A stretch of DNA of 64,000 nt from an uncultured Clostridia bacterium. GTDB lineage: Bacteria > Acidobacteriota > Aminicenantia > JAMOAD01. The stretch is taken from positions 12,317 to 76,316 of the forward strand of contig CAZWJH010000001.1 of assembly GCA_964634755.1 (NCBI GenBank), in the 5' to 3' direction. Under the pieces are notes generated by a model. It was not told the origin of the DNA. It worked only from the letters and a program-made list of their open reading frames with translations, and did no database searches. The translations under genes and the position numbers were made by a program. Positions 11,597-29,104 of this stretch are shown here, one piece after another (the stretch's first letter is position 1; each line of letters starts with the position of its first letter).

Positions 11597-12826
11597 TCAG
11601 GACAGAAGATTGAATGGTTTTATTACTCTGTCCAGAACTCCCTGAAGCTTGGAAATTGCTATCCCGTAATTCGTCATGGGGACATTTCTTCTTACACTCT
11701 CATTGAGTCTTCTCATCATCTCCATCCTGTTTAGCATACATGCTCCACAGTGGATTACAAGGGAAAATTTTTCAAGCTCCTCAGGAAAATCACTTCCGGA
11801 TGCAATCTCTATATTTAATTCTTTACCTGTGTATTGCAAAAGCCATCTCGGAATCTTAACCCTTCCTATATCATCAGCCTGCACATGATGGGAGCATGCC
11901 TCGGCAATAAGCACATTATCCCCGTCTTTAAGCTCATCTATTTTTTTAGCTCCCTTTACAAATTCGGAAAGTTCCCCTTTGTATCTTGAAAAGAGTATTG
12001 AAAATGTCGTAAGTTTAATGCCCTCCGGAACATCGGCGGAAACCTTAAGAATAACCTGCGAATCAGTAATCACCAATGCCGGTTTTTTAACAAGGTTTCT
12101 CAATGTATCTTCAAGCTCTCTCTCTTTTACAACAACAGCTGTCGCATCATTATCCAGAATCTCCCTTATTGTCTGAACCTGAGGTAAAATCAATCTTCCT
12201 TTGGGAGCTGCAAGATCAATGGGAACCACCAAAACTATTATATCTCCTCCCCTTATAAGGTCTCCCACCAAAACCTTCTCCTCTTTCAAATAAGAGGGCG
12301 CAAGCCTTATTATAAGATTTTTAAGCTCATTTATATTTTCACCTGTTTTTGCGGAGACACAGATATGATTTGCTTCTATCTTATCAGCAAATCTTATATC
12401 CCTTTCAAAAGGCTCTTTAATATCAATCTTGTTAAAAACTATTATGTAAGGAATCTTAAGCTCTTTTATTTCAAGAATAATCTTTTCTGTTTTTTCATCA
12501 ATACCATTTTCATCAACAACAATAAGAGCAAGATCGGATTTGAAAAGTACTTTTTTAGTTGCCTTAACTCTCTTTTCGCCCAACTCTCCCGTATCATCAA
12601 TTCCTGCGGTATCATAAAAAGTAACAGGGCCCAAAGGCAAAAGTTCATAATGTTTTGCGACAGGATCTGTTGTTGTTCCGGCAATATCTGACACTATGGC
12701 GATATCCTGCCCCACAATAGCATTAATAAGAGAGGATTTACCAGCATTCCTTTTACCTACAAGCGAAATTATAAGCCTTTCTCCTCTCGGTGCTTTAGCC
12801 ATACTTTCCTCCTTTACAATAAACAA
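11597..12826 (-). CDS. hydF: [FeFe]-hydrogenase maturation GTPase HydF
   Basis: G1 GKRNAGKSSLINA, G3 DTAG, NKID. C-terminal CxHx(n)HCxxC iron-sulfur motif (AEACSHH...IHCGAC). Confidence 0.85.
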   Translation of the reverse strand: MFIVKEESMAKAPRGERLIISLVGKRNAGKSSLINAIVGQDIAIVSDIAGTTTDPVAKHYELLPLGPVTFYDTAGIDDTGELGEKRVKATKKVLFKSDLALIVVDENGIDEKTEKIILEIKELKIPYIIVFNKIDIKEPFERDIRFADKIEANHICVSAKTGENINELKNLIIRLAPSYLKEEKVLVGDLIRGGDIIVLVVPIDLAAPKGRLILPQVQTIREILDNDATAVVVKERELEDTLRNLVKKPALVITDSQVILKVSADVPEGIKLTTFSILFSRYKGELSEFVKGAKKIDELKDGDNVLIAEACSHHVQADDIGRVKIPRWLLQYTGKELNIEIASGSDFPEELEKFSLVIHCGACMLNRMEMMRRLNESVRRNVPMTNYGIAISKLQGVLDRVIKPFNLLS

Positions 12827-12877
12827 GTAGTAAAACTCGAAATAGACATTTCTATAAAAATTATCATTTCCATTTTA

Positions 12878-13876
12878 TCAATTTTTCCCTTTGAAATTTC
12901 CAATGGCTTCAGAGGGGAAAAACCCTGCTGAGGATATAAGTTGTTTTATTTTTTGTACATCTTCAAGTGTAGAGTTATCACTTTCATTTTTCCCCGGGTA
13001 AATATTGTAAAGTTTTCTCACCTTTAAAGGTGTGACAGTTGGCATTATTACATTGGCTCCGACTATAAGCCCCTGAACCCTTGCATCCTTTTCAAGAGAT
13101 GCCATCGCACTTGTGGAAGGTATATTAGAGTAAGGGTTCAAGATTCTTAAAAGAGAAATTGTTCTCAATGATTTTTTAAGATCACCGCAGGAGTAATCAT
13201 AAAGAGGTGTCTTATTGTGAGGGATAAATGGACCAGATGCAATCATATGAAGTCCTAAGAGTGAAAGCTCCAGAATATCACTTGCAAGGATTTCATCTGT
13301 CATTCCGGGAAGACCTATAATCAGACCCGAACCAACCTCATATCCAAGTTTCATCAAAACCTCTATAAGCTTAAGCCTCTCCTTAAGCTCTCTTCCGGGT
13401 CTCATCCTTTTGTAAAGCTCCTGATCAAAGGTTTCAACTTTTAGAAGATATCGGTTAGCTCCGGCATCTTTCCATCTTTTAAGCTCATCATCGCTCCTCT
13501 CTCCCAATGAAAGTGTTATCGCGAGTGAATCATCCCCGTATTTTCCCCTTATCTTTTTTATTACCTTTTCAATAAATTCTCCCGTATAATAGGGGTCATT
13601 TCCAGATTGAAGAACAACAGTTCCCATTTTGCTTTTCTTAACCAATTCCACAGACCCTATTATTTCATCAAAATTTAATCTGTATCTTTTAAGCTCACTG
13701 TTTTGACATCTTAAGCCGCAGTAAAGGCACTTTTCTTTACAAATATTGGAAAATTCAACTATTCCTCTCAAATAAACCTCTTTCCCGAAAAGTTTTTCCC
13801 TTACTCTTTTACCTTCGGCAAAAAGGGATTTATCATACTTTCCTTGTAAAAACTCTTTAATCTCTCTTAATTTCAT
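12878..13876 (-). CDS. hydE: [FeFe]-hydrogenase maturase HydE (radical SAM, biotin synthase-like)
   Basis: CxxxCxxC radical-SAM motif CKEKCLYCGLR, BioB-like TIM barrel length (332 aa). Sits in the hydG/hydF neighbourhood. Confidence 0.85.
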   Translation of the reverse strand: MKLREIKEFLQGKYDKSLFAEGKRVREKLFGKEVYLRGIVEFSNICKEKCLYCGLRCQNSELKRYRLNFDEIIGSVELVKKSKMGTVVLQSGNDPYYTGEFIEKVIKKIRGKYGDDSLAITLSLGERSDDELKRWKDAGANRYLLKVETFDQELYKRMRPGRELKERLKLIEVLMKLGYEVGSGLIIGLPGMTDEILASDILELSLLGLHMIASGPFIPHNKTPLYDYSCGDLKKSLRTISLLRILNPYSNIPSTSAMASLEKDARVQGLIVGANVIMPTVTPLKVRKLYNIYPGKNESDNSTLEDVQKIKQLISSAGFFPSEAIGNFKGKN

Positions 13877-15260
13877 CTTTGGTATACCCCAATTTGTGCA
13901 TTCTTTTCGGATTTAAAAGATTCTTTATTTCATCTTCGGAAAGATAATTCTTTAAAATTTCCTCAACAGGCAAATTCTTCACTTTTGATTCCTTTATTAT
14001 TTTATCAACTGTCTCATATCCCAAAATAGGAACTAAAATAGTAGCTATTGTTTTACTGTTTTTTAAATTTTCTCCGCACTTTTCAGGATTGGCTCTTATT
14101 CCCTCTATGCACTTTTCCCTGAATATTCTTGTTGCATTTATAAGAAGTTTCAGGGATTCTAAAAACACTTTTGATAGAAGGGGATAAAACTGATTAAGCT
14201 CAAGGTTGCCCGATGAGGCAATCATTGTAATAATATTGTCATTTGAAATCACCCTTAGAGCAATCTGAGAAACAGCTTCGGGGATAACAGGATTAACTTT
14301 GCCCGGCATTATCGATGAGCCTGCTTGAACAGGAGGAAGAATTACCTCCCCTATTCCTCCTTTAGGCCCGCTCGAAAGAATTCTGAGATCAGTTGAAATT
14401 TTAAAAAGATTGGAAGCATAAGCTTTTATCATTCCGAAGACTTCAACATAAGCATCAAGGTTTTGAGTGGCATCAACAAGATTCTCAGCTCTTGCTATGT
14501 TTAAGCCGGTTATTTTTCTTAAAGTTTCGGTAACTTTCAGAATATAATCCCTTGCGGCACCAATTCCCGTACCTATCGCAGTTCCTCCCAGATTAACAGT
14601 CTTTATTCTTTCTCTTGATTTAAAAATTCTCCATCTATCCCTTGATATTGCCTCAGCATATGCCCCGAACTCCATACCCAGAGTCATAGGGACAGCATCC
14701 TGAAGCTGTGTTCTTCCTAATTTAACAATATCCTTAAATTCAAACTCCTTTTTTTGAAAAGCCTCCTGAAGGGCAGCTATCTCTGGCTCAAGTTTTCTCA
14801 AAAGTTTTAAGATTGCGACTTTCAAAGCTGTAGGGTAAACATCATTTGTTGATTGATGCATATTAACATGGTGGAGAGGATTAATATATTCATAATCCCC
14901 TTTTTCCCTTCCAGCCTTTTCAAGGGCAATGTTTGCTATGACTTCATTAAAATTCATGTTCGTGGATGTTCCTGCTCCTCCCTGGTAAGGATTCACTATT
15001 ATTTGCTCATGATACTTTCCTTCTATAATTTCATTGCAGGCAAAAATAATAGGTTCCGCAATTTCTCTTTTAAGATAACCCAACTCTTTGTTTGTTATTG
15101 CGGCTGCTAATTTTACCTTTGCAAAAGCCACTATAAACTCTTCAGGAATTTTATCTCCAGAAAAGGGAAAATTCTCGTAAGCTCTAAGAGTATGAATTCC
15201 GTAATATGCGTCATCGGAAAGCTTTTTCTCTCCTAAGGAATCTCCTTCAACTCTCATCAA
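13857..15260 (-). CDS. aspA: aspartate ammonia-lyase (fumarase/aspartase class II family)
   Basis: 467 aa with the GSSxMPxKxN signature (GSSIMPGKVNP) and a typical class II lyase N-terminus. Embedded between hydG and hydE. Confidence 0.85.
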   Translation of the reverse strand: MMRVEGDSLGEKKLSDDAYYGIHTLRAYENFPFSGDKIPEEFIVAFAKVKLAAAITNKELGYLKREIAEPIIFACNEIIEGKYHEQIIVNPYQGGAGTSTNMNFNEVIANIALEKAGREKGDYEYINPLHHVNMHQSTNDVYPTALKVAILKLLRKLEPEIAALQEAFQKKEFEFKDIVKLGRTQLQDAVPMTLGMEFGAYAEAISRDRWRIFKSRERIKTVNLGGTAIGTGIGAARDYILKVTETLRKITGLNIARAENLVDATQNLDAYVEVFGMIKAYASNLFKISTDLRILSSGPKGGIGEVILPPVQAGSSIMPGKVNPVIPEAVSQIALRVISNDNIITMIASSGNLELNQFYPLLSKVFLESLKLLINATRIFREKCIEGIRANPEKCGENLKNSKTIATILVPILGYETVDKIIKESKVKNLPVEEILKNYLSEDEIKNLLNPKRMHKLGYTKDEIKRD

Positions 15261-15513
15261 TATCCTTCCTTAGCTTGCTTAAAAGTTTTTTAATTTTTAA
15301 TCTATCAGGCTTTTCACAGAAAAGCAAATACCTCTCATTTATCCTGTACATTGAGGGAGGCTCAAAACCTGAGGGCTTTTCACCACATACAAAAGAGATT
15401 CTTCTTCCCATTTTCTCGGCAATCCAGAGTCCACCGCATTCATATTCGGCGGAAATCTCTTTAAGATATTTCTCTATTTTATTAAAAGTAGAGATCTCTT
15501 TCGCCATTCTCAA
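15247..15513 (-). CDS. small hypothetical protein (88 aa), translationally coupled between hydG and aspA
   Basis: Overlaps the hydG stop and the aspA start. Contains two short C(G)EKP repeats. No recognisable family. Confidence 0.35.
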   Translation of the reverse strand: MRMAKEISTFNKIEKYLKEISAEYECGGLWIAEKMGRRISFVCGEKPSGFEPPSMYRINERYLLFCEKPDRLKIKKLLSKLRKDIDES

Positions 15514-16969
15514 TTCTTGTCAAATATTCTTTCAGTTTTTTGTATGCTTTTGGCATCTTTTCCTTAACTTCATTGAGTTCTCTCTCTATAAGAGCATTTC
15601 CTATCTTTGCCGTATCCTCTGTTGCAAAATCCAGAAGCCATTCCTTAAAGGTTGTTATTGCATTTAATTTGCAGTATTTTCCTTCTGTTCCCGCTCTGAG
15701 AAGGTCCATTATGCATTTTCCGGTTCTTCCGCATCTGTAACCCGCAGTACAAAAAGATGTTATGTATCCCATTTTTGCAAGATCTCTTATAAGTTCATCG
15801 AGTGTTCTCGGATCCCCGATTAAAAATTGCTGCCTTTCGAGCTCCTGCTCAGTGTATCTGTCACTGTAAGCTCCTATCCCTATCCTTGTGGATGCATCAG
15901 TTTGAGTGATTCCCAATGACATTACCCTGTCTCTTATCTCTTTAGGCTCTCTCGCAGTTAATATCATTCCTGTATAAGGAATCGCAAGTCTCAGCACAAG
16001 AATTATTTTTTCAAAATTCTCATCACTTACCGCATATTTCGTTTTATCTATGTAAGGTGTGTTTGCGGCAGGCTCAAGTCTCGGAAAAGAAACAGTATGA
16101 GGACCTATTCCAAACTTTTTCTCAAGTTCAAGCGCATGATACAAAAGACCCATAACCTCAAATCTCCAATCATAAAGGCCGAAAAGAGCGCCTATTCCAA
16201 CATCATCCACTTCAGCTTCAAGGGCTCTGTGCATACAATAAAGCCTCCATTTGTAATTTCCCTTTAAAGTATTCTGAGGATGAACCATTTTGTATGTTTC
16301 ATGATGATAGGTTTCCTGAAATACCTGATATGTTCCTATACCCACCTCTTTAAGCCTTCTGAGTTCATCAATCTGAAGAGGTGCAGCATTAACATTTGCT
16401 CTCCTTATCTGCCCGTAACCATTTCTTACATTTACTTTCACATCATAGATTGTTCTCAAACTATTTTCAATATAATTAACATCGGTTTTCGGATGCTCTC
16501 CGTAAACAACAATAAGTCTCTTGTGCCCTATCTCCCCGGCAAGCACCTCAGCCTCTCTTCTTATTTCCTCTTCATTTAAAACCCTTCTTTTTATAATTTT
16601 ATTTTCAAGTCTGAATCCGCAGTAAAGACAATTGTTAACACAATAATCTCCCATGTATAAAGGAGCAAAGGTTACTATTCGGTTATCGTAAACCTTTAAT
16701 TTGATTTTAAGAGCAACCTCCTTCATCTCTTCGTAAAGCTCCGGGTCTTTGAGGTTTATAAGCATTGCAGTTTCATCCGGAGAGAGAGTTTCAATTCTCA
16801 AAGCTTTGTCAAAAATCTCTCTTATTCTTACGGGATCCGGGTCTCTGTTCTCCTCTATCTTTCTCCAGATCTCCTCATCATTGATAAAATCATGCTCCCC
16901 GTCCATATACTTTGTAATCTCTTCCTCTTTTATCCTGTTTGCTATCCAGGAATTTAAACTTTCTTTCAT
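15482..16969 (-). CDS. hydG: [FeFe]-hydrogenase maturase HydG (radical SAM tyrosine lyase, ThiH-like)
   Basis: N-terminal CNNCLYCGF radical-SAM motif and the C-terminal auxiliary-cluster motif CTAGYRCGRTGKC. 495 aa. Confidence 0.9.
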   Translation of the reverse strand: MKESLNSWIANRIKEEEITKYMDGEHDFINDEEIWRKIEENRDPDPVRIREIFDKALRIETLSPDETAMLINLKDPELYEEMKEVALKIKLKVYDNRIVTFAPLYMGDYCVNNCLYCGFRLENKIIKRRVLNEEEIRREAEVLAGEIGHKRLIVVYGEHPKTDVNYIENSLRTIYDVKVNVRNGYGQIRRANVNAAPLQIDELRRLKEVGIGTYQVFQETYHHETYKMVHPQNTLKGNYKWRLYCMHRALEAEVDDVGIGALFGLYDWRFEVMGLLYHALELEKKFGIGPHTVSFPRLEPAANTPYIDKTKYAVSDENFEKIILVLRLAIPYTGMILTAREPKEIRDRVMSLGITQTDASTRIGIGAYSDRYTEQELERQQFLIGDPRTLDELIRDLAKMGYITSFCTAGYRCGRTGKCIMDLLRAGTEGKYCKLNAITTFKEWLLDFATEDTAKIGNALIERELNEVKEKMPKAYKKLKEYLTRIENGERDLYF

Positions 16970-16982
16970 TTTAATACCTCCT

Positions 16983-17384
16983 TTAAAAAGCTATTATCTT
17001 TGAGTTGTACAGCAAATTTCTTAATTTTTTTGTTTCTTGATGAAGACGCACGGGTCGTGCGTCTCTACATGCTTTTGGCTTTTGACTGCTCGGCTTTTGT
17101 TGACTTTCGACTTTCAACTTTTGACTTTCGACTTTCGACAACAATGTTTTTACCTCAACTCCCCTGAGCTGTCCGAGTTTACCGGTCAATGCGCCCAATT
17201 CATCTGTAGTACCCTCAAAAATTATGGAAATCACTCTTACGGATTCCTCTTTGAAAGGAATACCCAATCTTCCCTTGATCAAATGGAAATAGGATGAAAG
17301 GATTTGATTGATTTTTTTATAATTTTTGGGATTGTAGACAAATATACCTATTATCCCGAATCTCTTTTTGTTTTCCATTTTCAC
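16983..17384 (-). CDS. TM1266-family putative iron-only hydrogenase system regulator (ACT/NikR-like fold) with a repeat-encoded low-complexity C-terminal tail
   Basis: The first ~82 aa match the small hydrogenase-cluster regulator family (GIIGIFVYN...GRLGIPF...VISIIFEG). The C-terminal ~50 aa (KVESQKLKVESQQ...) is encoded by a heptamer tandem repeat plus a GC hairpin. RBS GGAGGTG upstream. Confidence 0.55.
   Translation of the reverse strand: MKMENKKRFGIIGIFVYNPKNYKKINQILSSYFHLIKGRLGIPFKEESVRVISIIFEGTTDELGALTGKLGQLRGVEVKTLLSKVESQKLKVESQQKPSSQKPKACRDARPVRLHQETKKLRNLLYNSKIIAF
17042..17065. other. GC-rich hairpin (GAAGACGCACG-ggtc-CGTGCGTCTC) about 75 nt upstream of the hydG start
   Basis: 9-10 bp perfect G/C-rich inverted repeat with a 4-nt loop. 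Lies inside the 3' tail of the regulator ORF and upstream of hydG. Confidence 0.5.
17071..17140. repeat. 7-nt tandem repeat array: (GCTTTTG)x2 then (TTCGACT-like)x6
   Basis: Period-7 direct repeats visible by eye at 17099-17140 (gttgact ttcgact ttcaact tttgact ttcgact ttcgaca). Translated as 7-aa periodic KVESQ repeats in the regulator tail. Confidence 0.6.
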
Positions 17385-17432
17385 CTCCTTGGGTCAGGCA
17401 AAAGCCCTTCCCTCAGAAAACTCTTATTTTGA

Positions 17433-17663
17433 TTAAATTTTACTGTATGCTATTTTTAAATTATCAATTTCTTTTAAATCTTTTAAAAGCTCCTCAAAAA
17501 TTTCCTCTTCTCCCTTAAAAACCACACTCAAAATATAGCCATGATTTTCTGTTTGTGGCAAGCCCATTCTTCCCAATATAAATTCAGCATTTTTGTGCAG
17601 TATTTCATTAATCTCAGGAGCCCTTTTGTTTGCATCCATCAAAATAGTAATTGTCCCTATCAT
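17433..17663 (-). CDS. second TM1266-family small regulator paralog (76 aa)
   Basis: Same pattern as the neighbouring gene (ILMD...ILGRMGLP...ILSVVFKGEEE). Immediately downstream of the hydA stop. Confidence 0.55.
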   Translation of the reverse strand: MIGTITILMDANKRAPEINEILHKNAEFILGRMGLPQTENHGYILSVVFKGEEEIFEELLKDLKEIDNLKIAYSKI

Positions 17664-17664
17664 T

Positions 17665-19473
17665 TTAATGATGTTTGTGAGTTAATTCCTTAACACAGGT
17701 TCCCTTTTCAAGATCTCTTTCAAAATAACAAGTATGAAGAAGTCTGTGAGCAATATCTGAGCCGGGGGATTTGAGGAACTTTTCATAAACTTTTTTAATT
17801 GCCGGATTTTCATGAGAGCATCTCATCGGAAGTTCTCTGTCTTCTTTGTAAAGTCCCTCTCCTCTTCTTGCCCTTCTTGCAAGATCACTTCCATAGGGCT
17901 GTCCGCCTCCACCAACACAACCACCGGGGCATGCCATTATTTCAATAAATGCATACTCACTCTTTCCGGTCTCTTCTATCTGTTTTCTCACTTTTGTTAA
18001 AAGCTCTCGTGCGTTTCCGAGCCCGTGGGCAACTGCCACCTTAAGTTTCATTCCTGCAATTTCAAGCTCTGCTTCTTTTATACCCTGCATTCCTCTGACT
18101 GCTTCAATATCAAGGTTCTTAAGATTTTCTCCTGTGAGCAAAAAGTATGCGGATCTTACAGCAGCTTCCATAACACCTCCGGTAGCTCCAAAGATGGTTG
18201 CAGCTCCCGTATATGCTCCCATAAGATCATCCGCCTTTTCCTCAGGAAGGTTCTTAAAATCTATACCTGCTTCCTTTATCATTCTGACAAATTCTCTTGT
18301 GGTTAAAACATAATCAACATCCTGATACCCTGAATCTCTCATCTCAGGTCTTCGAGCCTCAAATTTTTTAGCTGTACAGGGCATAATTGAAACACTGACT
18401 ATTTTTGCAGGGTCAATACTGTACTCTTGAGCAAAATATGTTTTGGTTAATGTTCCGAACATTTGCTGAGGTGATTTGCAGGTTGAAGTATATTTTGCAA
18501 AATCAGGAAAATATGTTTCCATAAATTTAATCCAGCCGGGGGAACAGGAAGTAATGAGAGGAAGAGGTCCCCCTTCTTTTATTCTGCCAACAAGCTCAGT
18601 ACCCTCTTCCATTATCGTAAGATCAGCTGAAAAATTTGTATCAAAAACATAATCAAAACCTAATTTTTTAAGAGCAGCATACATTTTCCCCACGGTAACA
18701 GTTCCGGGTTCCATTCCGAACTCTTCTCCCAATGTAACTCTGATAGCAGGAGCTTCCTGAACAACAACAACTTTTTCAGGATCAAGCAGAGCTTCCCAGA
18801 CTTCATCTATCTCTGACCTTTCCCTTAATGCTCCTGTTGGACAAAATACGGTACATTGACCGCAATTCACACAAACACTGTTTCCAAGACCTTCTTTAAA
18901 AAATGTATTTACATTAACTTCAAATCCCCTGTCAGCAAAAGTGATTGCATGAACAGTCTGAACTTCATTACATACGGTTACACATCTTCCGCAGGCTATA
19001 CATTTGTTTGGGTCTCTTATAATAGCAATGCTTGTTTCATCAAGAGGTTTATATTCAAGGATTTGATCCAAAGTTTTTGTGTCAACTCCCATATTGTTAG
19101 CAAGCTCCTGAAGTTCACATTTTCCGTTAGCAACACAGCTCGGACAGGAAACATCATGGTTGGATAATATCATCTCTATAACAGTCTTTCTCATCTGTCT
19201 CAATCTAACTGAATTAGTCGTCACCTTCATTCCTTCACTTACAGGTGTACAGCAGGATCTTTTCGGTACTGGAGAGCCTTCGACTTCCACAACACAAACC
19301 CCACATGCTCCGGTGGGCTTTAAATCAGGATGATAGCAAAGAGTCGGAATTGTTGCTCCGACCTTTTTTGCTGCTTCAAGGATAGTCGTTCCTGCCGGAA
19401 CTTCAACTTCTTTACCATCAATGTATAATTTTACTTTATCAGGCATATAAGACCTCCTTATTATTTTTTTCAT
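17665..19473 (-). CDS. hydA: [FeFe]-hydrogenase catalytic subunit HydA (multidomain: 2Fe-2S, His-ligated 4Fe-4S, 2x 4Fe-4S ferredoxin, H-domain)
   Basis: L2 MPCTAKKFE and L3 EIMACPGGCVGGGGQP are canonical. L1 is TSCSPGW, non-canonical. N-terminal plant-type 2Fe-2S cysteines, HxxxCxxCxxxxxC, then CIACGRC and CVNCGQC. The real start is likely ATG at 19446 (MPDKVKLYIDG), overlapping the hydB stop. Confidence 0.9.
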   Translation of the reverse strand: MKKIIRRSYMPDKVKLYIDGKEVEVPAGTTILEAAKKVGATIPTLCYHPDLKPTGACGVCVVEVEGSPVPKRSCCTPVSEGMKVTTNSVRLRQMRKTVIEMILSNHDVSCPSCVANGKCELQELANNMGVDTKTLDQILEYKPLDETSIAIIRDPNKCIACGRCVTVCNEVQTVHAITFADRGFEVNVNTFFKEGLGNSVCVNCGQCTVFCPTGALRERSEIDEVWEALLDPEKVVVVQEAPAIRVTLGEEFGMEPGTVTVGKMYAALKKLGFDYVFDTNFSADLTIMEEGTELVGRIKEGGPLPLITSCSPGWIKFMETYFPDFAKYTSTCKSPQQMFGTLTKTYFAQEYSIDPAKIVSVSIMPCTAKKFEARRPEMRDSGYQDVDYVLTTREFVRMIKEAGIDFKNLPEEKADDLMGAYTGAATIFGATGGVMEAAVRSAYFLLTGENLKNLDIEAVRGMQGIKEAELEIAGMKLKVAVAHGLGNARELLTKVRKQIEETGKSEYAFIEIMACPGGCVGGGGQPYGSDLARRARRGEGLYKEDRELPMRCSHENPAIKKVYEKFLKSPGSDIAHRLLHTCYFERDLEKGTCVKELTHKHH

Positions 19474-21058
19474 TAATTTTTTTCAAGAATTCTTCCTTAA
19501 AATTATCTATTGCGCTTGCGACAGGCATAATTACCGACTGCCCCAAAGGACAGAGAGAAAGATTTCTCATTGTCTCGGCAATATGCTTCATCTTTTTAAG
19601 ATCTTCTTCCTTACCTTCACCGGTTTTAATTCTATAGATAATCTCCAAAAGCTGTCTTGTTCCTATCCTACATGGAGAACACTGCCCACAGGATTCATGG
19701 GCAAAAAACTTCAAAATAGAAAAAAGCATTTCAACAATTGAGGCATCCTCATTCATAACCAAAATTGCTCCTGAGCCCAAAACAGCCATCTGTTCTTTCA
19801 AATTTTCAAAATCCATTTTAACATCCAAGAGTTTATCCGATAAAAACACCCCTGCAGCTCCTCCTACAAGGGCAGCTTTGAATTTTTTTCCATTTTTAAC
19901 TCCTCCCCCGTAAGCATTTATAATTTCTCTGAGTGGAGTTCCCATTTCAACTTCTATAAGTCCCGGATATTCAACATCTCCTAATACAGTAAAAACTTTT
20001 GTTCCGGGAGATTTTTCAGTACCCAATGCTCTGTACCATTCCGCTCCTTTCAAAATAATCACCGGAACATTTGCCAAAGTTTCAACATTATTAACAACTG
20101 TAGGGTTTTGCCATAATCCATGAGTTACAGGATAGGGAGGTTTTATTCGCGGTTGTCCTCTCTTTCCTTCCAATGATTCTATGAGAGCTGTTTCCTCACC
20201 GCATACATAAGCACCGGCACCTTTTTTAACTTCTATATCAAAATTTAAACCAGTTTCAAGGATATTTTTTCCCAAAAGACTAAATTTTTTAGCATCCTCA
20301 ATAGCTCTATTAATTCTATCTATTGAAAGCTGATACTCACCTCTTATGTAGATATATCCCTTTTTAGCACCAACAGCATAGCCTGCTATTATCATTGCTT
20401 CAAGAAGCTTGTGAGGATCTCCTTCTAAAATTAATCTATCTTTATATGTTCCCGGTTCTCCTTCATCAGCATTGCAAATAACAAACTTTTCATCACCTTT
20501 TGCTTTTCTGGTAAATTCCCATTTAAGTCCTGTAGGAAATCCTGCTCCACCTCTTCCTCTTAAACCTGATTTCTTTATTTCCTCTATTACCTGTTCTGGA
20601 CTAATTTTTTCTTCTAAAATTTTTTCAAGAGCCGCATATCCGCCTCTGGCAATTACTTCTTCTATATCAAAAGTATTTACAATACAGCATTTATCCAGAA
20701 CAACTCTCGGCTGCTCTCTCGTAAGCCCTATATTCTCATAATCAACTACATTTTTTCTACCCTCTCCATCAATACTGTTTTCAACACTCTCACAAACCTT
20801 TCCTTTTAAAATATGCTGCTCAACGATATTCTTTGTATCTTTGGGAGTAACATTATAGTAATAAACTCTGTCCGGATAAACAATTAAAACAACACCTCTT
20901 CCTGAAATCCCTACAGGTCCGGTCTCAAGAACTTTAACCTCCTCTTCCACTCCATGCTTAAAGAGCTCTTTATTCAATCTTCTTTTTACTTCAAGCGCAC
21001 CATTTTGAATTGCCTCTTCATCCATAGGAATTAATATATGCATTCTTTGAAAACTCAT
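19439..21058 (-). CDS. hydB: hydrogenase flavoprotein subunit HydB (NuoF-like, FMN/NAD-binding) with an N-terminal Cys-less thioredoxin-like domain
   Basis: [21 protein letters not shown] motif and a 4Fe-4[13 protein letters not shown]. No C-terminal ferredoxin domains. The N-terminal Trx-like domain lacks the usual Cys. Confidence 0.85.
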   Translation of the reverse strand: MSFQRMHILIPMDEEAIQNGALEVKRRLNKELFKHGVEEEVKVLETGPVGISGRGVVLIVYPDRVYYYNVTPKDTKNIVEQHILKGKVCESVENSIDGEGRKNVVDYENIGLTREQPRVVLDKCCIVNTFDIEEVIARGGYAALEKILEEKISPEQVIEEIKKSGLRGRGGAGFPTGLKWEFTRKAKGDEKFVICNADEGEPGTYKDRLILEGDPHKLLEAMIIAGYAVGAKKGYIYIRGEYQLSIDRINRAIEDAKKFSLLGKNILETGLNFDIEVKKGAGAYVCGEETALIESLEGKRGQPRIKPPYPVTHGLWQNPTVVNNVETLANVPVIILKGAEWYRALGTEKSPGTKVFTVLGDVEYPGLIEVEMGTPLREIINAYGGGVKNGKKFKAALVGGAAGVFLSDKLLDVKMDFENLKEQMAVLGSGAILVMNEDASIVEMLFSILKFFAHESCGQCSPCRIGTRQLLEIIYRIKTGEGKEEDLKKMKHIAETMRNLSLCPLGQSVIMPVASAIDNFKEEFLKKINEKNNKEVLYA

Positions 21059-21519
21059 TTTTCCCTCCTCTTTTCCTCAATAATCGATTTTAATCTTTCG
21101 GGGGTAAGATTTCCATAAACTTTATTGTTTATCATAATCGCGGGAGCAACGCCGCAAACACCTAAGCATGAGCTCATTTCAAGAGTGAACAAACCATCTT
21201 TAGTAGTTTCCCCGAATTTAATCCCTAATATTTTCATAAGTTCCTTTGAAATAGTAGTGGAGCCCATAAGATGACAGGGAGGGGATTGACAAACTCTTAT
21301 GACATATTTTCCCCTTGGTTTAAAAGCATACATTGAATAAAATGTTGCAACTCCATGAACAGTGCTCAAAGGAAGTCCCAAATATTCTGAAACAGCTTTC
21401 AAATCTTCCTTTGAAAGATAATGTTCCTCTTTCGAATCCTGAAGTTCATGGAGAATTGCAAGCAAATTTTCACTCTTTTTCTCGTATTTTTCCAATATTT
21501 CTTTCATTTTACACCTCAC
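21055..21519 (-). CDS. hydC: hydrogenase subunit HydC (NuoE-like thioredoxin-fold 2Fe-2S)
   Basis: CQSPPCHL...CLGVCGVAP NuoE-type 2Fe-2S motif. Overlaps the hydB start and the upstream fusion-gene stop. Confidence 0.85.
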
Positions 21520-24500
21520 AGCATCTCTTCAAGGGATTTATGTTTTTTTTCAGCCTTTTTCTTTAATAAAGACTTACCTCTATCACAGTGAAGACATCTT
21601 CTTGCCTCTTCTATAGCATCTTCAAGACTCATTCCCTTGTTAACTTCAAGAGCCATTGATCTAATTCTTTCCTTTACATCAGAATACTCAGGCTTTTTTC
21701 TTGAGATTGTCTTAAGATACGCTTCCTCATCATAATCAGGAACATATTCGCCTCTCTCATCCTCAAAAAGTTTACCTTCATATCCGAAATATTTATCAAT
21801 CGCAATGGCAGCTTTTCTACCTTGAGCAACAGACTCAATCACTGTGGAAGGATAAATCGCATCTCCTCCAGCAAAAACACCTTCTTTCGAAGTCATCATT
21901 GTTTCCGGGTCTACCTTAAGATGCCCGTTTGAATAAAGTTCAAGCCCTGCATGAAGTTTGCTCATAGTAAGTTTTTGACCAATACAGGGAATCACAAGAT
22001 CAGCTTTAACTGTAAACTCAGTTCCCTCAACAGGAACAGGTCTTCTTCTCCCGCTATCATCAAATTCACCCAATTCTGTTCTTATAAATTTAACAGCTTT
22101 TACTTTTCCGTTTTCATCTTTTATTATTTCAAGAGGATTTGTTAGAAACTCAAATTCAATTCCCTCTTCTTCACTCTCTACTATTTCTTCCTGTAAAGCT
22201 GGCATTTCAGCTTTTGTTCTTCTATAAACAATTTTCACATTCTTAGCCCCAAGTCTTAAAGCTGTTCTGGCAGCATCTGTGGCGGTTGAACCTCCGCCGA
22301 CGACAATCACATTTTCACCAACTTCAACATCTTCTCCCAAATTTATCTTTCTCAGAAAATCTATACCACTTATAACTCCTTCGACATCTTCTCCCTTGAT
22401 ATTCATTCTTCTCGAAGTATGAGCCCCTGTTGCAATGAAGACAGCATCAAAGCCTTCTTTTTTAAGTTTGTCCAAGGATTCAACTCTCGTATTGAGCCTA
22501 ATTTCAACACCAGCTTTTTCTATTATTTCTATCTCTTTTAGCGTCACTTTTTTGGGTAATCTGTACTCCGGTATTCCAACTGTCATCATCCCACCCGGTA
22601 TTGGCAGAGCTTCAAAAACAACGGGTTTGTATCCCATTCTTGTAAGATAAAAGCCACATGCAAGGCCAGCAGGACCGGCACCTACAATCGCAATCTTTTC
22701 TTTTTTGGGATTCTCCGGAGGAGCAAATTTAGGCGGCTCACTTAAAGCCCAGTCTGCAAAAAGTCTTTTAACCTCTCTTATTGCCACAGGCTCATCAAAT
22801 TTACCTCTTTCACACCTTTTTTCACAAAAGGCGGGGCAAACTCTAGCGCAAACCGAAGGAAAAGGATTATTCTTCATATGGGTGTAGTATGCAAGCTCGA
22901 GTTTGCCCTCTGCCATATAGGAGATATATCTTGCTGCGTCCACATTAGCCGGACAATTGTTTTCACAAGGAGCATAAAACAGTGAAGCACAAACTCCCGC
23001 TTCACACTCCTTATCAACAATATGCTTTATATATTCATCTCTGAAATATTTTAAAGTCGATAAAACAGGATTTGGAGCTGATTGCCCTAATCCGCAAAGG
23101 GAGGTAGCTTTTATTGTTTCACCCAAATCCTGAAGTCTGTCAAGGTCCTCCAATTTACCCTCTCCCTTTGTTATTCTGTCAAGAATTTCATACATCTGTC
23201 TTAAACCTACTCTACAGGGAGAACACTGTCCGCAGGATTCTTCTATTGAAAATTCAAGAAAGAATTTTGCCATATTAACCATACAGGTATCCTCGTCCAG
23301 AACAATAAGCCCTCCTGATCCCATAATTGATCCCAGTGCTTTTAATGATTCATAATCAATTGGAGAATTCAAAAATTGTTTGGGAATACATCCACCAGAG
23401 GGCCCTCCTGTTTGAACAGCTTTAAATTTCTTACCATTAGGTATTCCTCCTCCGATATCATAAACAAGTTCTCCGAGAGTTATTCCCATAGGAACTTCCA
23501 CAAGCCCGGTGTTTCTGACATTTCCCGAGAGAGCGAAAACTTTTGTTCCTTTACTCTTCTCGGTTCCAATCGAAGCAAACCATGAAGCACCGTTCAAAAT
23601 TATGTGTCTTATATTAGCAAGAGTCTCAACATTATTAATTAAAGTGGGTTTACCCCATAATCCCTTTTGTGCGGGATAAGGAGGCTTGGGTCTCGGCTGC
23701 CCTCTTTCTCCTTCAATAGAAGCAATAAGAGCTGTTTCCTCTCCGCAAACAAAAGCTCCTGCTCCCATTCTAAGCTCTATATCAAAAGAGAAATCTGTCT
23801 CAAAAATATTTTTTCCTAAAAGGCCTAATTCTTTAGCCTGTTTAATAGCTATTTCAAGTCTCTTTATTGCAAGGGGATACTCAGCTCTAACATAAATATA
23901 GCCCATATTTGCGCCAATTGCATACCCTGCAATTGCCATACCTTCCAAAACAGCATGGGGGTCTCCTTCTAATACAGCTCTATCCATAAAAGCACCGGGG
24001 TCTCCCTCATCAGCATTACAAACAACATATTTTTGATCGCCTTTTGAAGCTCTCGTAAACTTCCATTTTAATCCTGTAGGAAACCCTGCTCCTCCTCTTC
24101 CTCTGAGACCAGAATTTATCATCTCTTCGATAACATCTTCAGGCTTCATCTCTGTTAAAACCTTCCCCAAAGCTTCGTATCCTCTTTGGGCAATATACTC
24201 ATTTATATTTTCAGGATCAATCTTACCGCAGTTGGAAAGAACTATTTTTTTCTGTTTCTCAAAAAATGGAATCTGTTTTTTCTCTTCAACTATCTTTCTT
24301 GCTTCCGGGGTTTCCCAGAGAAGCCTTTTTACGGGTCTTCCCTTTAGAAAGTGTTCCTCCACCAATTCCTCTATGTCTTCTTCTTTAAGCTTTATATAAA
24401 AGGAACCATCTGGATAAACAACCATAACAGGCCCCAATTCGCAAGGTCCCATACACCCTGTTTCCACAACATTTATTTCATCGGAGAGCCCTTTTTCCTC

Positions 24501-24593
24501 TATTACTTTAATCAATTTATCTTTTATTTCATGGCTATGAGAGGAGATACAGGCTCCCCCTCCGCATACTAAAACATCAAGTCTTTTTGCCAT
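21516..24593 (-). CDS. NuoF-like flavoprotein fused to a glutamate synthase small-subunit (GltD/NfnB-like) NADPH oxidoreductase domain
   Basis: 1025 aa. N-terminal Trx-like 2Fe-2S domain with its Cys retained (CGGGAC...ETGCMGPC), NuoF FMN motif [25 protein letters not shown], then GltD-type 2x 4Fe-4S ([14 protein letters not shown]; [13 protein letters not shown]) and a Rossmann [18 protein letters not shown] domain. Confidence 0.8.
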
Positions 24594-24962
24594 TTAGCCC
24601 TCCTCTTTAACTTCTAAAATGTACTCTGAAACCGGATTCCCATTAACAATGTGCTCAGCTATTATCTTTCTTGCAACATTATCACTAACATCACCATAAA
24701 CAATTGTGGGTTTACCTTTTTCATAAACAGTGATAACCGGTTCATGAGAGGAAAGTCCTCTTTCTCCGCTTTGAGTTATTAATATATCTCTGAGTTCTCT
24801 TTTTTCTATTTCATTCAAAAGTGCCTTTAAAGTCTCCCTTGCTCCCGAAGCAATTCCGCTTGTTCCCATACTTACAACTATCTTTACTCTTGCTCTCCCT
24901 TCTCTTAAATTCATATCCTTTGAATATTTTTCCCTAATCTTTTTTAAATCAGATAATTTCAT
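24594..24962 (-). CDS. thioredoxin-like ferredoxin-fold protein lacking the cluster-ligating cysteines
   Basis: 122 aa. Matches the Trx-like 2Fe-2S Fd domain layout, but all four ligand positions are Ser (SMGTSGIASG ... GLSSHEP). Confidence 0.5.
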   Translation of the reverse strand: MKLSDLKKIREKYSKDMNLREGRARVKIVVSMGTSGIASGARETLKALLNEIEKRELRDILITQSGERGLSSHEPVITVYEKGKPTIVYGDVSDNVARKIIAEHIVNGNPVSEYILEVKEEG

Positions 24963-24972
24963 TTTAACCTCC

Positions 24973-25473
24973 TTAATTTTCTTCTGCTTTTTTAAAATCT
25001 TTTATTATATTTATAGCTTTTTGAGGACTTAATCTTCCGAATACTTCCTCATCAATCACCATAACAGGAGCAAGACCACAGGCGCCAAAACATCTTGCCG
25101 TTGAAACAGTATAAAATTTGTCCTCTGTAGTTCCACCAACCTCAACGCCTAACTCTTTGCAAAGAGCATCCAAAATAACCTTTGAACCCTTAACATGACA
25201 GGCAGTACCAGTGCAAACATTAATAACATGTTTTCCTATTGGCTCTGTTCTGAAAAAATTATAAAAAGTTACAACTCCGTAGATCTCGGAAAGAGGTACA
25301 TTAAGATGCATTGAAACGAATTTTTGAACTTCAGCTGGCAAATAACCGAAAATACTCTGAGCTTTATGAAGAACCTGAATAAGAGGACCGGGGGTATTCC
25401 GATGCTCATCAATAAACTTTTTCAATGCCCGATACTCTTCATTATCGGGGATATGAAACCTTGCGCTATCCAT
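24973..25473 (-). CDS. second NuoE-like 2Fe-2S subunit
   Basis: CTGTACHVKG...ARCFGACGLAPV NuoE-family motif. 166 aa. Confidence 0.8.
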   Translation of the reverse strand: MDSARFHIPDNEEYRALKKFIDEHRNTPGPLIQVLHKAQSIFGYLPAEVQKFVSMHLNVPLSEIYGVVTFYNFFRTEPIGKHVINVCTGTACHVKGSKVILDALCKELGVEVGGTTEDKFYTVSTARCFGACGLAPVMVIDEEVFGRLSPQKAINIIKDFKKAEEN

Positions 25474-25482
25474 AAAAACCTC

Positions 25483-25824
25483 CTATAAATCCGATTTTTC
25501 TATTAACAAATTATAAATTTTTCCCGAAAGCTCAAAAGCTCCTTCATTAGATCGTAATAAAAAGATTCCTTCTCCCTTTGCTTTCTTAATCACCTCACTA
25601 TCAGGCATCCCGCCATTTGCAATTATAATTGCTGAAATTTTTTTCAATTGTGCAACAGCAATTATATTCATATGCCTTTGAACAGTTATCCATAGATTAC
25701 CTTCTTCAGCATGAGCCATAACATTTGACAAAAGATCAGAAGTGTAGCCCCCCGTTATTTCCCTATCCTCTCCTTCTGCCAAAACATTAAGATTAAAAGC
25801 ATTTATAAGGTTTTTTACTTTCAT
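25483..25824 (-). CDS. DRTGG-domain protein (first gene of the hydrogenase operon)
   Basis: Small protein with a DRTGG-like core (EGEDREITGGYTSDLLSNVM). Such proteins commonly lead [FeFe] hydrogenase operons. The start was reassigned to ATG at 25824 (GGAGAAACA RBS). The track ORF extends to 25893. Confidence 0.55.
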   Translation of the reverse strand: MKVKNLINAFNLNVLAEGEDREITGGYTSDLLSNVMAHAEEGNLWITVQRHMNIIAVAQLKKISAIIIANGGMPDSEVIKKAKGEGIFLLRSNEGAFELSGKIYNLLIEKSDL

Positions 25825-25855
25825 TGTTTCTCCATTTGTTAAAATCTTAACAAAA

Positions 25856-25884
25856 AGGTATATTAATATAATATATTTTTTACA
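25856..25884 (-). promoter_or_regulatory. putative sigma-70 promoter of the hydrogenase supercluster (-35 TTGACA, ~17 nt spacer, -10 TATATT)
   Basis: On the minus strand: TTGACA (25884-25879), then TATATT about 17 nt later. About 30 nt upstream of the reassigned DRTGG start. Confidence 0.35.
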
Positions 25885-26056
25885 AAGTGTCAAGTCTTTT
25901 TTGTTAATTATTTCACGATAACGAAGATTTGGTTTTAACCCTTCTTTTTACCTCTTACCCACTTTATTTATGTACTTTTTTCTATAATGATTTATTAATT
26001 TTTTCCTCTCTTTTTCTAAAAATTTATCTTTTTTGTACTTTGGTCTAAATTTCTCT

Positions 26057-27554: not shown

Positions 27555-29009
27555 TTAGCTCACTGCCTCTATTGCTTTCTTAAATGCTTCTTCCAAAAGT
27601 TCCATAGGAGGCTCTTTTATATAGCCTTTTTCCATAAGGAGTGAATGCTCCTCTCTTGCTATTCTAATGTCCTCAAGTGTTTTATCATAGACTTCCTGCC
27701 AGCTCATCTCCTTTCTTGCAACACCATCCTTGATAGCTTGCATTGCAACATCAGCTGCCTCTTCCGCAAAAACTTCTGTTTCATCCATAGTTGGCATAAT
27801 ATAATCAGGATGGATTCCCTTTTTCTGAGCAAATTTAGCCATTGAATGAGCAGCTGCTATTGCCATATTATCAGTAATCTTCCTTGCCCTTACAAGAAGA
27901 GCTCCTTTTAAAATTCCCGGAAATCCGAGAGAATTATTAACCTGATTTGGGAAATCTCCTCTTCCTGTGGCAACTATATATGCACCTGCTTCTTTTGCAG
28001 CATAGGGATAAATTTCAGGAACAGGGTTTGCACAAGCAAAAACTATTGATTTATCCGCCATCTTTTTTATCCATTCGGGTTTTACTGTATCCGGTCCAGG
28101 TTTACTTACAGCAATCAAAACATCTGCTCCTTCAAAAGCTTTTTCAATGTCTTCAATCCTGTCCGGATTTGTCGCTTTGCAAAGCTCCCATTTTCTGTAA
28201 AATTCAGGTCTTGATTTTATATCCTCCCTACCTGTATGAAGAGCACCTTTACTATCAAATATAATCATTTTTTTGGGATCACCACCTGCAGCAATTATAA
28301 GTCTCGCAATTGTAGTATTAGCAGCTCCCGCTCCTAAAAAGACCATTTTCACTTCACTTATATCTTTTTCAACTATCTTCAGTGCATTTATTAAACCGGC
28401 AAGTGTAACAGAGCCTGTCCCCTGAGCATCATCGTGCCAAACAGGAATATCCGCTTCCTCCCTTAAAGTATCCAAAACTTTGTAGCAGTTCGGTTGAGAA
28501 ATGTCTTCAAGATTTACCGCTCCCACACTCGGTTCAAGCATTTTAACAAAATCTATAATTTTATCAGGATCATGCTCTCCTTTTTCATTATAGCTGTTCA
28601 CGCAAAGAGCAATTGCATCTATTCCTCCCAAATACTTCATTAAGAATGCTTTTCCTTCCATAACACCCAAGCCTCCCGAAGGAGTAACATCACCATCTCC
28701 TAACACCCTTGTAGAATCCGAAACCACTGCTACAAGATTTCCTCTGTTGGATAATTCAAAGGAACATTCATGTTTATCCCTAATTGAAGTTGAAACCTTT
28801 GAAACACCAGGCGTGTACCAAACATTAAACCAATTAAAGCCGTAAATGCCAGCTTTCGGAACTGTCATAATTTTTCCAGAGTAAAATTTGTGAGCCAAGA
28901 AAGCAAGCTCTTTTAAAAAAATTGTCTTTGCCTTGGCAATTTGCTCCTCTGAAAAATCAGATGGAAAAATTTCATTAAGATTTGATAATGATAAATCCGG
29001 TTTTTTCAT
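27555..29009 (-). CDS. NAD(P)-dependent malic enzyme
   Basis: Malic-enzyme N-domain (YTPGV) and a Rossmann GAGAANTTIARL. Start reassigned to ATG 29009 (MKKPDLS) with RBS AGGAGGT. The track ORF is extended spuriously to 29303. Confidence 0.85.
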   Translation of the reverse strand: MKKPDLSLSNLNEIFPSDFSEEQIAKAKTIFLKELAFLAHKFYSGKIMTVPKAGIYGFNWFNVWYTPGVSKVSTSIRDKHECSFELSNRGNLVAVVSDSTRVLGDGDVTPSGGLGVMEGKAFLMKYLGGIDAIALCVNSYNEKGEHDPDKIIDFVKMLEPSVGAVNLEDISQPNCYKVLDTLREEADIPVWHDDAQGTGSVTLAGLINALKIVEKDISEVKMVFLGAGAANTTIARLIIAAGGDPKKMIIFDSKGALHTGREDIKSRPEFYRKWELCKATNPDRIEDIEKAFEGADVLIAVSKPGPDTVKPEWIKKMADKSIVFACANPVPEIYPYAAKEAGAYIVATGRGDFPNQVNNSLGFPGILKGALLVRARKITDNMAIAAAHSMAKFAQKKGIHPDYIMPTMDETEVFAEEAADVAMQAIKDGVARKEMSWQEVYDKTLEDIRIAREEHSLLMEKGYIKEPPMELLEEAFKKAIEAVS

Positions 29010-29104
29010 AATAACCTCCTTATTAATCCGGTAAAAATACAAAATTAATTTTATACCTTTTTGCCAATTTGTCAAGTATATGACAAATTTATTTTTTTTC
29101 GAAA

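Follow-up and report, generated by a model that had tools for sequence, protein, structure and literature searches.

We analysed a 64,000-nucleotide (nt) stretch of contig CAZWJH010000001.1 (hereafter the window, to which all positions refer; deposited as an uncultured Clostridia bacterium, GTDB lineage Aminicenantia). Its minus strand carries a row of genes that encodes one multi-subunit [FeFe] hydrogenase system: the catalytic subunit HydA, maturases and two differing diaphorase modules of the NuoE/NuoF type (Table 1). The element under study is an open reading frame (ORF) of 1025 amino acids (aa), here called the fusion, in which a NuoF-like flavin mononucleotide (FMN) subunit of the HydB type is joined to a GltD-type NADPH:flavin adenine dinucleotide (FAD) module. 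Module 1 consists of NuoE1, the small thioredoxin (Trx)-like subunit TrxL and the fusion; module 2, made of HydC2 and HydB2, is a stripped-down pair of the non-bifurcating NADH type.

Genes in the row are closely spaced, either 0-10 nt apart or overlapping by 4-8 nt, and a terminator scan inside it (25824-17665) yielded nothing convincing. An earlier interpretation made from the letters alone (the sequence-only reading) had placed a NuoE, a cysteine (Cys)-free Trx-like protein and the fusion at 21516-25473, and their reading frames do lie there, on the minus strand. It had also placed the fusion upstream of hydC and overlapping it; hydC, hydB and hydA do follow directly, while the overlap exists only with a GTG start of hydC at 21519. 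Gene callers start hydC at ATG 21507, leaving an 8-nt gap after the fusion.

HydA has a NuoG-like N-terminus, an H-cluster domain in which the H-cluster motifs were found, and a small-subunit domain. With 859 bits it passes the cut-off (765) of the NCBIfam model FeFe_hydrog_A6, ‘NADH-dependent [FeFe] hydrogenase’ (group A6). The L1 motif of HydA is TSCSPGW instead of TSCCPxW in 30 of 38 proteins from multimeric hydrogenase loci; a possible defect was considered here and discarded, since canonical HydABC loci have the motif too, which makes it a family trait. TrxL has no Pfam match and a weak match to the 2Fe-2S ferredoxin model NF041612 (3e-8), and it is homologous to the N-terminal Trx-like domain of HydB.

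Table 1. Features of the hydrogenase gene row, in order of transcription (positions in the window)
Feature	Position	Strand	Basis or remarks
Putative sigma-70-like promoter, TTGACA-17-TATATT (11/12)	25865..25893	-	Top match, a short way upstream of the unit's first gene
DRTGG-domain protein, 113 aa from ATG 25824	25483..25824	-	Pfam DRTGG 7.6e-7
NuoE1, NuoE/HydC/BfuC-type [2Fe-2S] subunit, 166 aa	24973..25473	-	2Fe-2S_thioredx 2.4e-49
TrxL, Cys-less Trx-like small subunit (HydD/HndB-like), 122 aa	24594..24962	-	0 Cys, so a cluster is impossible
HydB-GltD fusion, 1025 aa	21516..24593	-	ORF and domain matches
Fusion aa 1-100, Trx-like [2Fe-2S] domain	24294..24593	-	C10, C15, C47, C51
Fusion aa 120-528, NuoF core, FMN/NAD(H) site and [4Fe-4S]	23010..24236	-	C454, C457, C460, C500; bifurcating-type signatures including GGPSGG ([17 protein letters not shown])
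Fusion aa 529-1025, GltD-type module	21516..23009	-	FAD Rossmann fold, NADPH Rossmann fold, ten Cys
HydC2, second NuoE-type [2Fe-2S] subunit, HydB2 partner	21055..21507	-	2Fe-2S_thioredx 7.8e-52
HydB2, second NuoF, 539 aa, non-bifurcating NADH type	19439..21058	-	FMN site and [4Fe-4S] intact
HydA, [FeFe] hydrogenase catalytic subunit	17665..19446	-	Fe_hyd_lg_C 1e-100
Accessory genes directly downstream of HydA	11597..17663	-	Two TM1266-family regulators, HydG, 88-aa ORF, aspartate ammonia-lyase-like, HydE, HydF

Architecture of the HydB-GltD fusion

Pfam and NCBIfam matches bear out the proposal that the 1025-aa ORF joins a complete NuoF to a GltD-type NADPH:FAD module. From the N-terminus, Pfam found 2Fe-2S_thioredx (aa 4-80, 1e-6), Complex1_51K (160-329, 2e-48), SLBB (352-401), NADH_4Fe-4S (441-524, 1e-34), Fer4_20 (530-618, 5e-23) and Pyr_redox_2 (633-925, 6e-34). 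The NCBIfam model nuoF_fam scored 512 bits at aa 126-525, and the GltD-like models PRK12771 and PRK12814 scored 472 and 431 bits at aa 494-1004. The CGQCSPC motif (aa 454-460), the four-Cys N-terminus and the Cys motifs of GltD are all present.

Conservation was scored on an alignment of 36 diverse fusions. Invariant or nearly so are the four N-terminal Cys, the Cys of the NuoF cluster (C454, C457, C460 and C500), ten Cys of the GltD half (positions 530, 535, 543, 547, 582, 586, 590, 594, 1000 and 1003), the Rossmann glycines and the triplet Y790-R791-R792, which ends the second β-strand of the NAD(P) fold. Basic instead of acidic residues at the end of this strand are the mark of NADPH binding in Rossmann folds; since the triplet follows this rule, it indicates a predicted preference for NADPH in the C-terminal half. 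The domain check confirmed this half as GltD/NfnB-like. About 20 aa ahead of the stop codon stands the invariant sequence ...EEARRCLHC, whose CxxC (aa 1000-1003, window 21585-21596) resembles the EAxRCLxC opening the N-termini of NfnB and GltD; in alignments it coincides with the point where the StnC/NfnA GltD domain ends. Counting C530, C535, C1000 and C1003, the GltD half has 10 conserved Cys, beyond the need of two [4Fe-4S] clusters.

In an AlphaFold2 model of the fusion (pLDDT 84, pTM 0.71) both halves are folded. The N-terminal half superposes on BfuB as seen in structures of bifurcating enzymes (HydABC of A. woodii, T. kivui and T. maritima, NiFe-HydABCSL of A. mobile, and NfnABC). The C-terminal half matches two folds, the NfnA/StnC GltD domain and NfnL/NfnB. 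A PDB fold search with the model returned no solved chain that spans both halves; the best query-normalised TM-score was 0.46. Identity of the NuoF core to solved BfuB chains is 57-61% over the aligned chain; for A. mobile HydB it reaches 70% when the modelled core is compared. The GltD half shows 39-46% identity with the NfnA/StnC GltD domain and 42-45% with NfnL/NfnB; its scores are 403-408 bits against Bfu-type NfnA, 347 bits against T. maritima NfnB and 331 bits against S. ovata StnC.

The point at which the two halves meet can be located by comparing the fusion of locus L016 with the canonical HydB of locus L028 (624 aa). The two proteins are ∼90% identical up to ...DKKCRAxVC and then diverge: the former continues into the Fer4_20/FAD/NADPH module and the latter into a ferredoxin-like domain with two CxxCxxCxxxC motifs. 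Alignments of solved HydB chains to the window fusion end at the same junction, and alignments of NfnA, NfnB and GltD begin there. The CxxCxxCxxxC motif was found in none of 117 fusions, nor in HydB2, and the canonical ferredoxin-like B3/B4 domain was found in no subunit of the window system. In current structural models of Bfu enzymes the bifurcation site is a ‘flavobicluster’ formed by a [4Fe-4S] cluster, FMN and the [2Fe-2S] cluster of BfuC; the low-potential branch leads from the BfuC cluster to the two ferredoxin-like clusters of BfuB (B3/B4), where ferredoxin docks (PMC12018979). The GltD module sits exactly where bifurcating HydB has this ferredoxin-docking 2x[4Fe-4S] domain, which it replaces.

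An assembly or frameshift artefact as the source of the fusion was considered and rejected: an identical protein is encoded on five independent metagenome contigs, and the protein is full length (≥950 aa) in 117 of the 120 best database clusters, with identity to the window fusion of 57-97% across all 120. The figure of at least 117 full-length clusters is a lower bound, as it is drawn from the best 120 clusters only. With 30 species-level genomes from many phyla as well, the architecture has turned out not to be the singular one it had been taken for. The closest genome is a Candidatus Aminicenantes metagenome-assembled genome (MAG; 97% identity). A scan with one genome per species detected the fusion in Aminicenantes, Spirochaetes/Treponemataceae, Clostridia, Thermodesulfobacteriota/Syntrophaceae, Syntrophorhabdales, Caldisericota, Caldatribacterium and Vallitalea; cultured Firmicutes among the carriers are Anoxybacter fermentans, Zhaonella formicivorans and Thermanaeromonas toyohensis. 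On the strength of these sequences we regard the fusion architecture as real and widespread; its mechanism we infer. Only in loci L027 and L075 are the fusion and neighbouring genes broken into several overlapping reading frames; because the neighbours are broken too, the breaks are most likely sequencing or assembly frameshifts, not pseudogenes.

Paralogous subunits and gene context

Sequence criteria separating bifurcating from non-bifurcating beta subunits were described by Losey et al. 2020 (PMC7311640): non-bifurcating subunits have T/S and K/S/A at the NADH site and Y at the FMN site, lack GGPSG and carry fewer iron-sulfur (Fe-S) domains. The same bifurcation-specific residues (A/E..M, F and GGPSG; F182, A202 and M204 of A. 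mobile) were given by Schut et al. 2022. We applied the criteria of Losey et al. to 93 NuoF-like ORFs. All 28 fusions have four N-terminal Cys, GAGAF at the FMN site and GGPSGG in the SLBB domain, and 27 have PGAFMDR at the NADH site (K replaces M in L017); their C-terminus is the GltD module, without a ferredoxin-type motif. The 19 HydB2 proteins are uniform in having a Cys-less N-terminus, PGT[YF]KDR, GAGAY and GG[AS][AS]G (19/19 each), and their C-terminus carries no extra domain. Canonical HydB and StnB proteins (600-630 aa) have four Cys or GGCC at the N-terminus, mostly PGAFMDR, GAGAF and GGPSGG, and two C-terminal CxxCxxCxxxC motifs in 38 of 42 cases.

The HydB2 of the window has PGTYKDR, GAGAYVCGEE and GGAAG. 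Where the fusions carry their N-terminal Cys it has PAPS, in a Trx-like domain that is Cys-less, and the C-terminal cluster domain is missing, leaving no cluster ligands at either end. It thus shows every feature tested of a non-bifurcating NADH-dependent beta subunit, and the hydB among the downstream hydCBA genes is not a standard bifurcating one: T, K, Y and GGAAG stand at the diagnostic positions. In a neighbor-joining tree, computed without support values, HydB2 proteins have a clade to themselves, whereas the fusions branch from within the bifurcating HydB of hydrogenases.

The NuoE types vary together with the NuoF types. The type of NuoE1 precedes a fusion or a canonical bifurcating HydB in 62 of 65 cases, and the type of HydC2 precedes a non-bifurcating NuoF in 20 of 21; as a subunit of the former type, NuoE1 is probably the partner of the fusion. 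TrxL has no Cys in any cassette of the window type and three Cys in Firmicutes, in Caldatribacterium and in canonical HydD. The three Caldatribacterium loci (L021, L024 and L025, ∼13400-15200) have a second NuoF of mixed character, with T..K and Y of the non-bifurcating type but GGPSGG of the bifurcating type, a Cys-less N-terminus and no ferredoxin domain. In these loci there is also space for a gene of ∼180 aa between NuoE1 and the three-Cys TrxL, where Firmicutes have a HATPase gene.

To compare gene context, the window proteins were matched to all ORFs of 80 related loci, among which 30 species-level loci have the fusion. The order DRTGG-NuoE1-TrxL-fusion-HydC2-HydB2-X recurs across phyla, X being either a full HydA or a ∼900-aa protein of the FdhA type (NuoG-like N-terminus plus molybdopterin domains). 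HydC2-HydB2-HydA follows the fusion in 11 of the 30 loci and HydC2-HydB2-FdhA in nine; in six the fusion leads directly into HydA, and four stop at a contig edge after HydB2 or HydC2. HydA or FdhA is thus found downstream in all 26 loci whose contig runs beyond the cassette, which confirms the linkage to hydrogenase genes to the extent that no unlinked orthologue turned up. The notion of a hydrogenase-specific module stands only in part: linkage to HydA is kept, but the same cassette also serves formate dehydrogenases. A free-standing transhydrogenase as the principal explanation was discarded, since every continuing locus has an adjacent HydA or FdhA.

Some lineages (Aminicenantes, Spirochaetes) contain both the HydA and the FdhA version, on cassettes that are ∼70% identical, and the diaphorase cassette is therefore modular. 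Z. formicivorans and T. toyohensis have a classical Thermoanaerobacter-type operon, ordered sensor hydrogenase, DRTGG, NuoE, HATPase, Trx-like, fusion and HydA, in which no HydB other than the fusion is encoded. A Syntrophorhabdales MAG has TrxL-HydC2-HydB2-HydA adjoining NuoE1-fusion-HydA, each with its own complete HydA; the two modules are thus able to work separately. In an Anaerolineaceae MAG (L044:8430-16014) we observed NuoE, TrxL, a canonical bifurcating HydB of 596 aa with a ferredoxin-type 4Fe-4S domain, NuoE, a non-bifurcating NuoF of 551 aa and an FdhA-like protein; the pairing of bifurcating-type and non-bifurcating NuoEF on one catalytic subunit is thus broader than the GltD fusion. 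FdhA-type ORFs in L014:15143-17008, L066:15201-17003 and L044:13990-16014 end at 600-675 aa within the molybdopterin domain, and orthologues in L011, L017 and L074 extend to ∼910 aa. The short ORFs would be consistent with an in-frame UGA selenocysteine codon, for which they are candidates.

Promoter-like matches across the region equal the shuffled expectation in total, and only position and quality favour the site listed in Table 1. In the mechanical ORF list the DRTGG gene begins further upstream, with a TTG at 25893 whose first T also opens the best -35-like hexamer, TTGACA (window 25825-25893). The true start is most likely ATG 25824; the 113-aa form is also called on the identical contigs. 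The DRTGG gene is kept upstream of the cassette in most of the compared loci, and its product is likely a regulatory accessory rather than a redox subunit. Between hydG and hydE lies a gene of the aspartate ammonia-lyase/fumarase family (window 13857-15260, minus strand; 645 bits to PRK12273); an aspartate ammonia-lyase-like gene holds the same position in the related Aminicenantes loci L004, L005, L015 and L039. Three genes upstream of the hydrogenase unit, beyond Era and a 159-aa membrane protein, is a malic-enzyme gene (window 27555-29303, minus strand), whose best NCBIfam match, ‘NADP-dependent malic enzyme’, is far under the cut-off. It could be a local source of NADPH, or its placement could be coincidental.

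Readings of the mechanism

To our knowledge, all characterised Bfu-type enzymes (HydABC, NiFe-HydABCSL, Stn/NfnABC and Wor-Bfu) use free ferredoxin as the low-potential partner, and the ferredoxin-like domain of BfuB belongs to the definition of the family. The best reading, which we prefer tentatively, is that the window encodes a two-diaphorase hydrogenase with NADP(H) in the place of ferredoxin, an uncharacterised variant of the HydABC/Bfu family. NADP(H) as the branch partner is the most economical choice because the bifurcation core is kept and the ferredoxin exit is exchanged for a GltD module. In module 1 the FMN/[4Fe-4S]/[2Fe-2S] site would operate as in Bfu enzymes, and the branch that normally passes via B3/B4 to ferredoxin would be rerouted to FAD and NADP(H) by way of the GltD clusters. 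The ferredoxin-free reaction would be 2 H2 + NAD+ + NADP+ <-> NADH + NADPH + 2 H+, making use of the ∼100 mV by which the two pools, NADP and NAD, are offset in vivo; when H2 is produced, NADPH would help to push NADH oxidation. Module 2 would provide an uncoupled NADH route to the same HydA at very low H2, placed either in a mixed oligomer or in an alternative isoenzyme. Elsewhere this five-gene cassette is attached to a formate dehydrogenase of the FdhA type instead of HydA.

In vivo potentials of ∼-280 mV for NADH and ∼-380 mV for NADPH were given by Schut et al. 2022. By simple arithmetic from these values, H2 could be sustained at up to ∼10^-3 bar when NADH and NADPH are oxidised together (mean -330 mV), but at only a few Pa with NADH alone. 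This estimate fits the fermentative and syntrophic lineages that carry the fusion, as well as its pairing with formate dehydrogenases. The design may allow many anaerobes a ferredoxin-free exchange of H2 or formate with NADH and NADPH. A broader version of the proposal, which we consider doubtful, is that a ferredoxin-independent bifurcating/confurcating module is widespread in uncultured fermenters and syntrophs; electrons from H2 (HydA) or formate (FdhA) would be split between NAD+ and NADP+, with the tethered FAD/NADP(H) domain as the low-potential partner and a second, uncoupled NADH diaphorase on the same catalytic subunit.

Several points weigh against NADP(H) as the bifurcation partner. 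For every fusion the mechanism is predicted from sequence. The electron path between the GltD clusters and NuoE1/FMN is assumed, and specificity for NADPH over NADH would follow from the YRR motif rule only. NAD and NADP are equal in standard potential, so that ‘bifurcation’ depends on the in vivo ratios of the pools. An NADH module of the non-bifurcating type that shares HydA could act as a short circuit for the coupling. Finally, the GltD-type clusters of NfnSL are themselves the ferredoxin site, which leaves room for ferredoxin.

The shared standard potential also speaks for a simpler machine, a dual-nucleotide hydrogenase with no energetic coupling, in which FAD/NADP(H) and FMN/NAD(H) are independent ports on one Fe-S wire and which possibly acts as an NADH/NADPH transhydrogenase. 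Precedents for a plain NADPH port are StnC, a GltD-like protein whose FAD was shown experimentally to be non-bifurcating (PMC10482914), and the NADP-binding beta subunit of the NADP-dependent formate dehydrogenase of M. thermoacetica (PMC5736913); non-bifurcating HydB2 in the same operon points the same way. We nevertheless hold uncoupled ports to be unlikely, as the bifurcating-type residues and the N-terminal [2Fe-2S] site are kept near-strictly among fusions only 57-60% identical. HydB2, presumed to be uncoupled, has lost the signature, and an uncoupled fusion would be expected to drift likewise. A complete separation into two co-transcribed enzymes seems very improbable to us. One would be an NADH hydrogenase (HydA-HydB2-HydC2) and the other an NADH:NADP+ oxidoreductase (NuoE1-TrxL-fusion) that never touches HydA, a division suggested by the position of HydB2 and HydC2 next to HydA and by the separable modules of Syntrophorhabdales. 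However, the Syntrophorhabdales fusion has a HydA of its own, no continuing locus has the fusion without a catalytic subunit, and in six species, two cultured Firmicutes and Vallitalea included, the fusion is the sole NuoF beside HydA.

The sequence-only reading had linked H2 with NADH, NADPH and ferredoxin. In such a scheme ferredoxin would dock on the clusters of the GltD type, as it does in NfnSL, or at another site, and the GltD half might provide its FAD as a second bifurcating flavin. This scheme agrees with the bifurcating-type signature of the NuoF core and with the similarity of the GltD half to NfnL/NfnB, whose clusters reduce ferredoxin; ferredoxin binding at the GltA domain of an archaeal HydB was also surmised by the authors of PMC11216029. 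Its ferredoxin leg nevertheless lacks sequence support, as neither NuoF paralogue has the B3/B4 domain. The operon contains neither a ferredoxin gene nor a partner of the NfnA/NfnS type, and no NfnA/S-type gene was found in ∼10 kb around it. Two bifurcation sites in one polypeptide, with an NfnL-type FAD as the second, would likewise be unlikely, given that Bfu-type NfnA gives the GltD half a higher score than NfnB does and that the homologous GltD domain of StnC has a non-bifurcating FAD. Overall we consider the ferredoxin-linked scheme improbable.

If NADP(H) does replace ferredoxin, the fusion would represent a new coupling logic for H2 and formate metabolism in low-H2 fermenters and syntrophs (Aminicenantes, Atribacterota, Caldisericota, Spirochaetes, Syntrophaceae and others). 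It would then offer a possible answer to how NADH and NADPH pools are linked in anaerobes without Nfn and Stn. It would also be a natural domain-swap experiment on the Bfu mechanism, in which the near-isogenic L016/L028 pair could be compared directly. Cultured carriers (Zhaonella formicivorans, Thermanaeromonas toyohensis, Vallitalea and Anoxybacter) make the fusion testable.

Comparison with known systems

In open full-text literature we found no description of a bacterial NuoF-GltD fusion or a double-NuoEF cassette (subscription works, e.g. Poudel et al. 2016, Calusinska et al. 2010 and Buckel & Thauer 2018, were outside the search). Among the nearest published items is the archaeal group F hybrid [FeFe]/[NiFe] hydrogenase of Greening et al. 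2024 (PMC11216029), modelled with a NuoF-like HydB that has a glutamate-synthase (GltA) domain. That complex is archaeal, differs in composition and was modelled without an assay, and the bacterial double-NuoEF cassette is not described there. In ANME-1, HdrA-NfnB fusions have an NfnB/GltD-like module inserted into HdrA's ferredoxin domain, proposed to bring NADPH into bifurcation (PMC9012536); the insertion is similar, but the host protein, likewise a bifurcating flavoprotein, is unrelated and the organisms are archaeal.

The HydDB group A2, ‘glutamate synthase-linked’, is defined by a HydA neighbour with GltD ‘but not NuoF’, and a NuoF-containing neighbour leads to group A3. The window system shares the link of HydA to a GltD-type protein; since the fusion has GltD as well as a complete NuoF, it would be binned as A3. 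The census of the Bfu family demanded a ferredoxin-type 4Fe-4S InterPro domain. Because of these two rules, the fusion has probably been overlooked or lumped with ordinary bifurcating hydrogenases.

Non-bifurcating NADH-dependent hydrogenases (PMC7311640) are the model for HydB2, which has all features of their beta subunits and no extra clusters. In the window, however, HydB2 is encoded in one operon with a module of the bifurcating type, and the two apparently have a single HydA in common. HydB2 and HydC2 look, from their sequences, like the ferredoxin-independent NADH modules characterised in Syntrophomonas and Syntrophus. The tetrameric operons of the HydABCD/Hnd type have the same NuoE, small Trx-like, NuoF and HydA subunits, and in Firmicutes the fusion fills the HydB slot of such an operon; the window adds a second NuoEF pair and its TrxL has no Cys.

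NfnAB/NfnSL shares the GltD-like half with the fusion, whereas its FNR/PyrK-like small subunit (FAD and [2Fe-2S]) has no match here. StnABC/NfnABC (S. ovata, C. saccharolyticus, T. sibiricus), of which the Stn-type loci L045 and L049-L056 were met for comparison, combines a BfuBC core with a GltD-type NADPH/FAD domain, including the C-terminal CxxC. Its GltD domain, however, is inserted in the NuoG-like A subunit as the mid-potential input, its BfuB keeps the ferredoxin domain, and it has no H-cluster. In the window it is BfuB that bears GltD, where the ferredoxin domain would otherwise be, and a true hydrogenase serves as the A subunit (FdhA in other loci).

Similar in composition are the Bfu/HydABC enzymes of T. 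maritima, A. woodii and T. kivui and the NiFe-HydABCSL of A. mobile, with HydA, a NuoF-like HydB and a NuoE-like HydC. The fusion has the NuoF-like FMN/NAD(H) domain with its [4Fe-4S] cluster, the N-terminal Trx-like [2Fe-2S] domain and the bifurcation-specific residues of a Bfu B subunit; NuoE1 is of the bifurcating-partner type, and HydA, with its NuoG-like N-terminus and H-cluster domain, is encoded together with them. The system differs in carrying a Fer4_20/GltD module in place of the C-terminal ferredoxin-like B3/B4 domain, an extra non-bifurcating NuoEF pair and a Cys-less TrxL. The window system would work like the HydABC/Bfu hydrogenases, from which it descends.

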